NCBI RefSeq assembly: GCF_964026565.1
Contig: NZ_OZ032162.1
Coordinates: forward strand, 1,544,781-1,576,780
Source of the DNA: Rickettsia endosymbiont of Ceutorhynchus obstrictus
GTDB lineage: Bacteria; Pseudomonadota; Alphaproteobacteria; Rickettsiales; Rickettsiaceae
Length of the DNA stretch: 32,000 bases
Direction: 5' to 3'
In this document: positions 4,293 to 30,211 of the stretch, one piece after another
Layout of the letters: every line of letters starts with the position of its first letter
Position numbering within the stretch: position 1 is the stretch's first letter
Notes under the pieces: generated by a model
Told to the model about the DNA's origin: nothing
What the model saw: only the letters and a program-made list of their open reading frames with translations
The model's database searches: none
Made by a program: the position numbers and the translations under genes

Positions 4293-5123
4293 ATGTCTCT
4301 ACTGCACGCCTCAATCCTTACCGTTTTTCCCGAAATGTTTCCGGGACCGTTAGGTTTATCTCTGGCCGGTCAAGCATTACACAAAAATATCTGGTCATAT
4401 GATATTGTTAATATCAGAGATTTCGGCATAACTAAGCATAAAAATGTAGACGACGAAGCTTACGGCGGCGGCGACGGCTTAATAATGCGGCCGGATGTTT
4501 TAGGTGCTGCTATCGATTATAGCCTATCTTTAAATCCCGGCAGTAAAATCTATTATCCGTCACCAAGAGGCAAATTATTTAATCAAAGCCTTGCAAGGGA
4601 AATGATCCGGCTAAATTCAGAAAGATTTAGACAAGATGAATTTAATGGTGAGCTGGCTAGGCGTACCGGAGTATGTGAGCACAGGCGAATCCAGAAAAAT
4701 TCGCTTGTATCAAGCTTTATGAATGACGCTGTACGTCAAGATAAAATAATAATTTTATGCGGTCGCTATGAAGGGATTGACGAACGCGTAATTGAAGAGT
4801 ATAATATCAATGAAATTAGCGTAGGGGATTACATCCTATCCGGCGGTGAACTGCCTACTCTTACTATCCTTGATTGCTTAATTAGGCTATTACCAGGCGT
4901 TTTAATAAATCAAAACACGTTATCCTCCGAATCTTTTGAGCAGGACGGCGAGTTTGCCGGTTTATTAGAATGTGCTTTATATACCAGACCCGAAAATTGG
5001 CGAGGAAGAAAAGTACCGAGTGTTTTACTATCGGGCAACCCTCGATTAATTAATGAATGGAAATGCCGGCAATCTACTGAGGTTACCAAATTACGTCGTC
5101 CGGATTTATTAACACGGATTTAG
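4293..5123 (+). CDS. trmD: tRNA (guanine37-N1)-methyltransferase TrmD, carrying a 41-codon in-frame RPE insertion
   Basis: Contains [28 protein letters not shown] and GDYILSGGE motifs typical of TrmD. Gene order trmD-rplS is conserved. The ORF is uninterrupted despite the repeat at 4609-4731. Confidence 0.95.
4609..4731 (+). mobile_element. RPE-1-like repeat inserted in frame inside trmD (123 bp, 41 codons)
   Basis: ggctaaattcagaaagatttagacaagatgaatttaatggtgagc...cacaggcgaatccagaaaaattcgcttgtatcaagctttatgaatgacgctg aligns along its whole length with the intergenic copies at 11041-11164, 20834-20958, 25350-25473 and 30089-30211. Confidence 0.9.
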
Positions 5124-5126
5124 GAT

Positions 5127-5735
5127 AGCTTTGTTGCGTGGCTCGAATTTTTGCAAAGTGTTCGGTGTCATACCGTGGCTTGACCGGCGTTGTTGCATGG
5201 ATGGTAAAAGCAGCAATATGTCATTCTAGCTAAAAGCGGGAATCTAGAAAAAACACTTAAAATAAACAAAATTATATAAAAATTTACTATATAATTCGCT
5301 TAAATATTTTCTGGATTCCCGCTTTTAGGGCGTTGTTGCATGGCTACCAGAATCGTCATTGCGAGGAGGCATTTATGCCGACGTGGCAATCCAGTTAAAC
5401 ATATTTTTATACTAAACTTGTTTAGTATTCTAATTAAATCCCTCATTACATTCGGGATAGCCTGGATTGCCGCAGCCACTTCGTGGCTTCGCAATGACGG
5501 GTTTTTTATTAATTTTCGAGCCATGCAACAACGCCCGCTTTTAGCTAGAATGACATCAAAAATTTGATCCATGCAACAACGCCGCCGCTGCAGGCGGCGT
5601 GGCAATCTAGGCTCTCCCGAATGTAATGAGGGATTAATTAGAATATTAAACAAGTTTAGTATAACTGGATTGCCACGTCGGGACTACGTCCCTCCTCGCC
5701 ATGACGGCATTTTTTGCAACGTTTTTGATCCACAT
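5127..5735. repeat. Mosaic of nested RPE-like elements between trmD and rplS
   Basis: Several module types recur here. The terminal modules are Rgc(g/t)ttgttgcRtgg, and the arm hairpins are tgtcattc...gggaatc(c/t)ag and gtcattgcgagg...ggcaatccag. The cores are of AT-rich and cccgaatgtaatgagggatt types. Confidence 0.9.
5329..5535. mobile_element. 207-bp RPE with GGCGTTGTTGCATGG / CCATGCAACAACGCC termini, nested in another RPE with a 9-bp duplication
   Basis: The direct repeat cgcttttag lies at 5320-5328 and 5536-5544. The host arm reads ctggattcc-cgcttttag-[insert]-cgcttttag-ctagaatgaca. An uninterrupted relative of the host lies at 21319-21501. Confidence 0.85.
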
Positions 5736-5759
5736 AATTTTTTACTAGGAGTTAAATAA

Positions 5760-11030: not shown

Positions 11031-11040
11031 GGTCTATATA

Positions 11041-11164
11041 CAGCGTCATCGCGATCGCTTGATACAAGCGAATTTTTCGGCATTCGCCTGTGCTCACGTA
11101 CTTTAGTACGGTAGCTTAGCTCTTCCTCAAATTCATCTTGTCTGAAACTTTCTGAATTTAGCCG
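11041..11164 (-). mobile_element. RPE-1-like repeat (124 bp) just downstream of the DUF2461 gene
   Basis: cagcgtcatcgcgatcgcttgatacaagcgaattttt...ctttctgaatttagccg is the reverse complement of the trmD and 30089 copies. TA dinucleotides flank both ends. Confidence 0.9.
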
Positions 11165-20833: not shown

Positions 20834-20958
20834 CAGCTAAATTCAGAAAGATTTAGACAAGATGAATTTAAAGGTGAGCCTGCGCTAGCCGTTAATAATA
20901 CGTGAACACAGGCGAATCCAGAAAAATTCGCTTGTATCAAGCTTTCTGAATTTAGCTG
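20834..20958 (+). mobile_element. RPE-1-like repeat, variant with a symmetric 17-bp TIR
   Basis: cagctaaattcagaaag ... ctttctgaatttagctg. The first ~110 bp differ from the copy at 30089 by one substitution and one 1-nt indel. Confidence 0.9.
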
Positions 20959-21318
20959 TAATAACCCTAAAAAATAAAATATCTATAAGCTTCTTCTATA
21001 CAAAAGAAATTTACAGAAACTTATAGATTTAACTTTAAAAAATTGGTTATACTAAACTATTACGAAACATAATTTTATATAAAAATAATATTGAGTTGCC
21101 GATTATATCAGCATTTTTATCAATATATTTTTTTACTTTTAACTAATTAATATTACAAAAATTTATTTTTATAATTTATTTTATTCTTTAGAAAAATCAG
21201 CATTTTATATTTAAATATATAATTTACTAAATTTTAATAATTTACAAAAGTGACTTTATTTACTTTAGCAAGTTAAATAATCTAAGTGCTATGCTATAGA
21301 GTTTGCTATCCTTAAATG

Positions 21319-25304: not shown

Positions 25305-25349
25305 ATCCTAAATTGCTAATTCCAAACTATAGCTTCAACCATTAAGGTA

Positions 25350-25563
25350 CAGCGTCATTCATAAAGCTTGATACAAGCAAATTTTTCCGGATTTGCCTGT
25401 GTTCACGTACTCTAGTACGGTAGCTTAGCTCACCATTAAATTCATCTTGTCTAAACCTTTCTGAATTTAGCTGTATATACACTAAATTTTGCAAGTTTCG
25501 CTTGTGCTCACGTTATTTAGTATACGCGTAGCTTAGCTCGCTCTGAAATTTAATGTCTATACC
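25350..25563 (-). mobile_element. RPE-1-like repeat (25350-25473) followed by a degenerate partial second copy (about 25484-25563)
   Basis: cagcgtcattcataaagcttgatacaagc...ctttctgaatttagctg is flanked by TA on both sides. The downstream partial copy retains gcttgtgctcacgt...gtagcttagctc. Confidence 0.85.
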
Positions 25564-25610
25564 TTAATGCTTTTTGCTATACAAATCAATTTTTTACTTC
25601 TGCCTAAAGG

Positions 25611-29970: not shown

Positions 29971-30088
29971 TATAATTTTGGAATAAAAATAAGTGGGGAT
30001 AAGATAACATCTTGAAATATTTTTTGCAAGGAATCTAATAACTAGCTAGGGCATCGTCAAGTTAAGTTTATGTGCGTTAGATATTATA

Positions 30089-30211
30089 CAGCTAAATTCA
30101 GAAAGATTTAGACAAGATGAATTTAAAGGTGAGCCTGCGCTAGCCGTTAATAATACGTGAGCACAGGCGAATCCAGAAAATTCGCTTGTATCAAGCGATC
30201 GAGAGGACGCT
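30089..30211 (+). mobile_element. RPE-1-like repeat (123 bp)
   Basis: cagctaaattcagaaagatttagacaagatgaatttaaaggtgagcctgcgctagccgttaataatacgtgagcacaggcgaatccagaaaattcgcttgtatcaagcgatcgagaggacgct. Confidence 0.9.

Follow-up and report, generated by a model that had tools for sequence, protein, structure and literature searches.

A lineage-specific, in-frame RPE-3 palindromic element in the trmD gene of the Rickettsia endosymbiont of Ceutorhynchus obstrictus

The trmD gene of the Rickettsia endosymbiont of Ceutorhynchus obstrictus contains an in-frame palindromic element of the RPE-3 family, 126 nucleotides in length, that adds 42 codons to the gene. We found it in the window, by which we mean the whole stretch of 32,000 nucleotides that was analysed. 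The reading that we favour, with a probability of roughly 85%, is that RPE-3 inserted recently in the ancestry of this endosymbiont, that the element is read through in frame, and that the result is a working TrmD with a passenger loop. The following features of the gene and of the element are used throughout.

4293 to 5123, forward strand: trmD coding sequence, 276 codons plus stop (ORF list, PF01746, NF000648, TIGR00088)
4560 to 4571, forward strand: codons of S90-P91-R92-G93, equivalent to the SPQG 'cover loop' (alignment to solved TrmD structures)
4606 to 4624, forward strand: left terminal inverted repeat TCCGGCTAAATTCAGAAAG, family consensus TACAGCTAAATTCAGAAAG (copy alignments and direct reading)
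4608 to 4733, forward strand: RPE-3 insertion of 126 nt, codons 106-147 (filled versus empty genes, RPE3 model, blastn and nhmmer)
4715 to 4733, forward strand: right terminal inverted repeat CTTTATGAATGACGCTGTA (reverse complement of the left end, a few positions excepted)
4761 to 4775, forward strand: codons of G157-R158-Y159-E160-G161, a conserved motif after strand 150-155 and just downstream of the insert

TrmD is the tRNA (guanine37-N1)-methyltransferase that makes m1G37, and it is an antibiotic target. The gene in the window is an open reading frame of 276 amino acids, and the first-pass annotation was right that it stays open from 4293 to 5123. Its product matched Pfam PF01746 in two stretches (E 7e-43), and it scored 264.7 bits with NF000648 (cut-off 220) and 222 bits with TIGR00088 (cut-off 195), in both cases again in two stretches with the insert between them. 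Using the insert-free protein as query, tblastn found a single trmD locus in the genome, which consists of a single contig of 1,838,929 bp with 34.4% G+C.

The boundaries of the element come from the comparison of this filled gene with empty ones. Empty orthologues encode 234 amino acids against 276 here, and the insert is therefore 42 codons or 126 nucleotides long, occupying 4608-4733 instead of the 123 nucleotides and 41 codons at 4609-4731 that were given at first; the peptide that had been quoted as its product was exact and has 42 residues. In the two closest relatives (L004 and L005, whose proteins are named for the Rickettsia endosymbionts of Oxypoda opaca and Halotydeus destructor) the flanks are 90-94% identical to ours and the empty site is clean, at ATG ATA. 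The junction reads GAA ATG ATA GGT/CAG CAA GAT AAA in these relatives and GAA ATG ATC CGG CTA AAT ... GCT GTA CGT CAA GAT AAA in the window trmD. The simplest reading would be a core of 124 nucleotides (4608-4731) lying between the two copies of a duplicated TA, the left one at 4606-4607 and the right one at 4732-4733. Under this reading the left TA is now TC, a change that is synonymous in the Ile codon.

The element had been described as RPE-1-like, and the profile searches assigned it to another family. TrmD residues 105-147 aligned to positions 1-43 of the 43 in TIGR03775 (RPE3) with 74.5 bits (cut-off 30.25, E 4e-21), a full-length match with no difference at the level of the model, and a genome scan with the same model gave 74.1 bits at the trmD site. 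TIGR01045 (RPE1) had no match in the TrmD protein at E <= 0.01, and the 14 matches of the RPE1 model in the genome are all outside trmD. The correction of the family to RPE-3 is part of the value of this analysis. The termini of RPE-3 are imperfect 19-nt inverted repeats, TACAGCTAAATTCAGAAAG against the reverse complement of CTTTCTGAATGACGCTGTA. The trmD copy folds as one long hairpin (-38.3 kcal/mol, z -2.5), and because this energy takes rank 35 among 67 RPE-3 copies, the fold can be called typical of the family. The centre of the trmD element is unlike both of the main variants in its own genome. A stop codon that appears in the family consensus was set aside as an artefact of the two mixed central variants, all the closest copies being open.

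Four intergenic copies of the element were located elsewhere in the window by blastn, with 4560-4780 as the query.

11039 to 11164, reverse strand: intergenic RPE-3 copy (83% identity, E 3e-31)
20836 to 20960, forward strand: intergenic RPE-3 copy (87% identity, E 1e-37)
25347 to 25471, reverse strand: intergenic RPE-3 copy (90% identity, E 3e-44)
30080 to 30196, forward strand: intergenic RPE-3 copy with a diverged 3' end (87% identity, E 8e-33)

These are the repeats that the first-pass annotation had placed at 11041, 20834, 25350 and 30089. All four were recovered and could be aligned over their whole length, and at 83-90% identity and E values from 3e-31 to 3e-44 their similarity to the trmD insert is far beyond chance. 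The copy at 25347-25471 makes up, together with a second repeat, a composite insertion of about 255 nt (25331-25590); this composite is missing in both closest relatives (synteny gaps in G010 and G023) and adjoins a conserved tRNA-like sequence, present in each of the three genomes.

At the scale of the genome, a profile built from the copies matched 81 times with nhmmer, 71 of these matches being near full length, and the trmD element itself had 41 blast matches at 81-94% identity. TIGR03775 matched 75 times in this genome and not once in 14 control genomes, and RPE-3 copies were found in five other genomes of the genus, as befits a family confined to Rickettsia and close relatives. With the consensus of its own genome the trmD copy shares 89% identity, and with single paralogues as much as 94%, but it is only about 80% identical to the copies that lie in the trmD genes of R. 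bellii and of a Nabis endosymbiont. Of the 71 copies, 38 are open in the frame that trmD uses. Six of the seven copies that are embedded in long open frames use this same frame, and about 11 genomic copies lie in long ORFs in it.

The preference for one frame bears on the idea that the element is removed after transcription or after translation, in the manner of an intron or an intein, so that the mature TrmD would be normal. Such strict use of a single frame by the ORF-embedded copies would be needless if they were spliced out. The element RNA does form a stable hairpin, as removal might lead one to expect, but no intron or intein family was detected, and the peptide matches the RPE3 domain model alone. 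Furthermore, RPE inserts have been described as translational fusions that are compatible with protein folds (PMC10969869, PMC3767692). We consider removal very improbable; under in-frame read-through, the RPE-3 insert of trmD would be translated together with its flanks.

The same element is present in other genes of this genome. Internal RPE3 inserts in the same frame as in trmD were seen (loci L032-L041) in a ComF-family gene, in folC, in ybeY and in an unnamed 209-aa ORF, and also in a 1227-aa gene resembling glutamate synthase beta and hydroxylases. The inserts in rnc, lipB and an EnvZ-like kinase gene are N-terminal, the one in addA is near the C-terminus, and a glnA fragment bears RPE3 as well. 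The ybeY gene of genome G005 (G005:C25:43674-44345, L042) matches the RPE3-bearing YbeY continuously over 225 aa, and the ybeY genes of G010 and G023 are empty; the G005 gene may represent another shared or recurrent RPE3 insertion.

Within the protein, the insert is found between the SPRG cover loop (residues 90-93) and the GRYEG loop that binds AdoMet. The SPQG loop is known to cover AdoMet at the centre of the trefoil knot of TrmD (PMC5372744). Lying between these two AdoMet-binding loops, the insert is thus inside the knot-forming part of the SPOUT domain, and not N-terminal to the knot as was first proposed. The distance from YPSPRGK to IILCGRYEG had also been underestimated, as it is about 17 residues in empty orthologues (a helix and a short loop) instead of a few. 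TrmD residues 7-106 and 149-273 align to residues 25-124 and 125-243 of the Anaplasma TrmD structure 3knu, and since the flanks are adjacent in 3knu, at residues 124 and 125, the intervening 42 residues have no counterpart there.

In the predicted structure the insertion site is between a helix (98-106) and a strand (150-155). The insert enters at the N-terminal end of that strand and GRYEG follows its C-terminal end; given the way parallel alpha/beta sheets are usually arranged, the insert would be expected on the face of the sheet away from the cofactor and the active site. The AlphaFold model, made with 116 sequences, has the core of TrmD at high confidence and the insert residues 107-146 at a pLDDT below 50. 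The modelled core superposes on another Anaplasma TrmD structure (4ig6) with a TM score of 0.90, normalised to the target, and an rmsd of 2.3 Å. Probably the extra segment is a flexible appendage with no function of its own, and we would place it at the surface of the protein.

Outside the insert, TrmD retains 41 of the 41 columns that are invariant among 116 homologues, including P91, G93, G157, R158, G161, D163, E164, R165 and G184-E186. In the GRYEG motif, G157, R158 and G161 are thus invariant, and E160 is conserved in at least 90% of the sequences of this 116-sequence alignment. The flanks are under purifying selection, with dN/dS values of 0.128 and 0.072 against two empty relatives and 0.077 between those relatives, each such pairwise value being an average over the time before and after the insertion. 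The pair formed by R. bellii and the Nabis endosymbiont has kept an insert and an open trmD over a dS of 0.28, with a flank dN/dS of 0.094; the dN/dS of the insert in this pair is about 1, but it comes from 5 differences only, a number too small for interpretation. Judging from the single copy, the invariant residues, the low dN/dS and the modelled core, TrmD looks functional, and m1G37 is most likely still made by the insert-bearing enzyme.

Could TrmD instead have been inactivated, or be on the way to it, with trmD a young pseudogene that has not yet decayed and m1G37 either dispensable or otherwise supplied? The genome has no second trmD, no invariant residue has been lost, and a dN/dS of 0.07-0.13 is like that of insert-free relatives. 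It is true that the insert interrupts the conserved knot region, with an AdoMet-binding loop on either side of it, and that endosymbiont genomes hold many decaying genes, of which the RPE3-bearing glnA fragment is an example. Against this, the allele was found in samples of several host labels, and a comparable insert with an open gene has been kept in R. bellii strains and in the Nabis endosymbiont. A passage of PMC7641325 also describes TrmD as essential in bacteria. Inactivation is in our judgement quite unlikely, and we continue with a working TrmD that carries a passenger loop.

The insertion is specific to one lineage. TrmD has its two halves adjoining, with no insert, in 23 of the 27 species of the genus that were scored and in all 16 genomes drawn from other Rickettsiales families. 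This upholds the central claim of the first-pass annotation, that a Rickettsia palindromic element lies in frame within trmD at a place where these orthologues have no homologous segment. In a maximum-likelihood tree of insert-free trmD, the window gene grouped with those of the endosymbionts of O. opaca and H. destructor (support 96/95). R. bellii and the Nabis limbatus endosymbiont belong to a separate clade (support 100/99), together with four empty genomes.

An insert in the TrmD loop was present in four of the 27 species. In R. bellii (Q1RH66, 282 aa) and in the Nabis limbatus endosymbiont it is, as in the window, an RPE3 of 126 nt in the same frame and in the same helix-strand loop. It differs from the window's in its insertion codon, the site being three codons downstream (GAT ATA CAG CTA ... 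GCT GTA AAC, versus GAT ACA AAT when empty), in the identity of about 80% already mentioned, and in belonging to a clade in which all the other genomes are empty. Between R. bellii and the Nabis endosymbiont the copies share 96% identity. The shifted site, the low identity and the different clade point to an insertion independent of that in the window. The TrmD of R. tillamookensis (284 aa; L031:1810-1965) also has an in-frame palindromic element in this loop, but one of the RPE5 family and 150 nt in length (TIGR03776, 83.6 bits). It occupies the same codon as in R. bellii and reads AAT ATA TAT TCT ... AGT ATA AAT, versus AAT AAA AAC in the empty state, so that ATA flanks the element on either side. 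Several places in the window's own genome match this RPE5 element at 82%.

Shorter extras in the loop were seen in TrmD proteins of uncultured Rickettsiaceae-like bacteria, of 36 residues in P0007, 22 in P0037, 11 in P0049 and 5 in P0028. P0007 scored 26.2 bits on the RPE3 model, below the cut-off, and from its sequence its extra may be a decayed RPE3 remnant. The P0037 insert begins and ends (IIETE ... ILASAISDKA) in a way that resembles the RPE3 peptide. All four extras may be elements that are shrinking through in-frame deletion.

The most economical account of these data is at least three independent insertions in the TrmD loop. We weighed this against a single ancient insertion that would date from the ancestor of the genus, lost precisely from most lineages and with its boundary shifted in others. 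The ancient event would be compatible with the occurrence of an insert in four of 27 species and with the 5-36 extra residues of the distant P0037, P0049, P0028 and P0007, some of which are like a decayed RPE3. It does not fit well with the site in the window, which is three codons upstream of that shared by R. bellii and R. tillamookensis, nor with the identity of the window's copy, which reaches 94% with paralogues in the same genome and is about 80% with the R. bellii copy. Moreover, the R. tillamookensis element is of a different family, RPE5, and the closest relatives of the window gene are cleanly empty, and exact loss would have had to occur at least five or six times. A single ancient insertion is for these reasons unlikely, and we keep to a recent insertion of RPE-3 in the ancestry of this endosymbiont.

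We propose the following course of events. A non-autonomous palindromic RPE-3 would have entered trmD in the recent ancestry of the endosymbiont, whose closest named relatives are those of Oxypoda opaca and Halotydeus destructor. The core of 124 nt, with its imperfect 19-nt terminal inverted repeats, would have landed on the TA of the Ile105 codon ATA, and duplication of this TA would have brought the addition to exactly 126 nt and put it in the only frame of the element that is usually open. Read-through of trmD would then give a TrmD with 42 extra, highly charged residues at the turn between helix 98-106 and strand 150-155.

The junctions in trmD and folC suggest that the position of the TA in the codon matters. 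The three trmD events and one folC event all fit a TA at codon positions 2-3, and with the TA in this position the element falls in its usually open frame. Among today's empty sites, the TA is present only at those that correspond to the trmD event of the window (ATA) and to the folC event (GTA in G005); the fit of R. bellii and R. tillamookensis needs an ATA allele, as the empty relatives now have ACA or AAA. In the folC of the window's own genome (L033, G000:C1:1014210-1015613) RPE3 is found at residue 304. In the folC of G023 this very TA holds a palindromic element of another family; AAT ATA lies to the left, and GTA CAA to the right, of both elements. The folC gene is empty in G010 and in G005, which reads AAC GTA CAA (L033 was compared with L045, L046 and L047).

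The TA could also be part of the ends of the element rather than duplicated. For the four other copies of the window, comparison with G010 and G023 showed sites that are rearranged, composite or too diverged to define junctions. A search of the genome for an autonomous element with RPE3 ends found none, and of nine solitary end-like matches outside the RPE3 copies none brackets a longer element. With no clean intergenic TA duplication and no longer element with the same ends, the mechanism of transposition is one that we infer. Bacterial MITEs that duplicate TA are derivatives of IS630/Tc1-mariner-type elements. RPE-3 is like them in being short, in having terminal inverted repeats and junctions compatible with a TA duplication, and in its lack of coding capacity for a transposase. 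It is unlike them in that its TA may belong to the element and in that no autonomous partner with the same ends was found in the genome.

We give even odds to a broader interpretation, in which the helix-strand turn of TrmD is a recurrent landing site for RPEs (RPE3 twice and RPE5 once, at the TA of ATA in the same phase), folC is likewise such a site, and RPE3 and RPE5 are transposable elements that duplicate TA. Already under the reading that we favour, the recurrent hits in the TrmD loop are best accounted for by three filters acting jointly, namely a TA target, the right codon phase and a structurally permissive loop. If the broader interpretation is true, the occurrence of RPEs in proteins should be predictable from three conditions, a TA, its phase in the codon (2-3) and a loop that is permissive, and a deep trefoil knot would be able to tolerate an insert of 42-50 residues in its core.

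Because some 70 copies of this repeat are present in the genome, we also considered that a copy might have been misplaced in trmD during assembly. Repeats of this kind collapse in short-read graphs, and the interiors of contigs switch to a paralogue. Sequence data from 15 public runs with nine host-organism labels contained 77-93% of the sampled words of trmD. In contigs of two of these runs, X1 (records 1 and 8) and X8 (records 17 and 24), unique trmD sequence is joined to both ends of the element, and in a contig of X15 (record 16) it is joined to the right end. No contig that skips the element, and no empty allele, was found among the contigs of these three runs. Three independent runs, with different host labels, therefore join unique trmD to the element; in addition, the insert is exactly in frame and the insert-bearing protein is on record in three contigs. 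A misassembly is hardly credible on this evidence.

Read depth rose roughly 20- to 200-fold over 4601-4740, as expected of a multi-copy repeat. Five clustered differences at 4654-4660 in the Logan contigs of X8 and X15 were considered as strain variants and rejected, since they equal a paralogous copy at genome position 512849. Most probably the assembler changed from one copy to another within the repeat; contigs of multi-copy repeats do this, and their interiors are not to be read as alleles. A polyA RNA run from the same study as one of the DNA runs had no reads of the organism and is hence uninformative on trmD expression.

Ogata et al. reportedly described Rickettsia palindromic elements in frame in protein-coding genes in 2000 (Science 290:347) and 2002 (Genome Res 12:808). 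In-frame RPE insertions in Rickettsia ORFs are now established (summarised in PMC10969869 and PMC3767692), RPE-1, -2 and -3 being the families that are frequent inside ORFs and RPE-4, -6 and -7 those for which insertion hot spots have been suggested (PMC3767692). R. bellii reportedly has 526 RPEs, 53 of them in genes, with no list given in the text (PMC1458961). The trmD insert shares with these known cases a dispersed palindrome of about 100-150 bp, found both between genes and in ORFs, that keeps the host ORF open and occurs in unrelated housekeeping genes. It is unlike them in that trmD is not named as a host in any paper that we found in the literature searched, and in that the event is specific to one endosymbiont lineage. 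A precedent for trmD as an RPE host does exist among sequence records, in the R. bellii TrmD (Q1RH66) described above.

Since 2000 the in-frame RPEs of Rickettsia have counted as a textbook oddity; one more host gene is unsurprising, and the value of the case is modest. What is new against the literature that we found is limited to the repeated use of one loop and to the pattern in the codon phase of the TA, and it rests on four junction comparisons. The clean junctions between filled and empty sites in our trmD and in folC suggest a TA target in a fixed codon phase, a mechanism that is unaddressed in the literature searched. The knot segment of the SPOUT trefoil, in an essential enzyme, appears to have taken 42-50 extra residues at least three times. 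RPE-bearing TrmDs are consequently natural variants with which the folding of knotted proteins, and the tolerance of the knot to loop length, can be studied.

Downstream of trmD, the spacer that separates it from rplS (5124-5759, 636 nt) is packed with other repeat families, and ORFs on both of its strands encode repeat-like peptides. In relatives such as R. tillamookensis (L031) the corresponding trmD-rplS gap is 15 nt.
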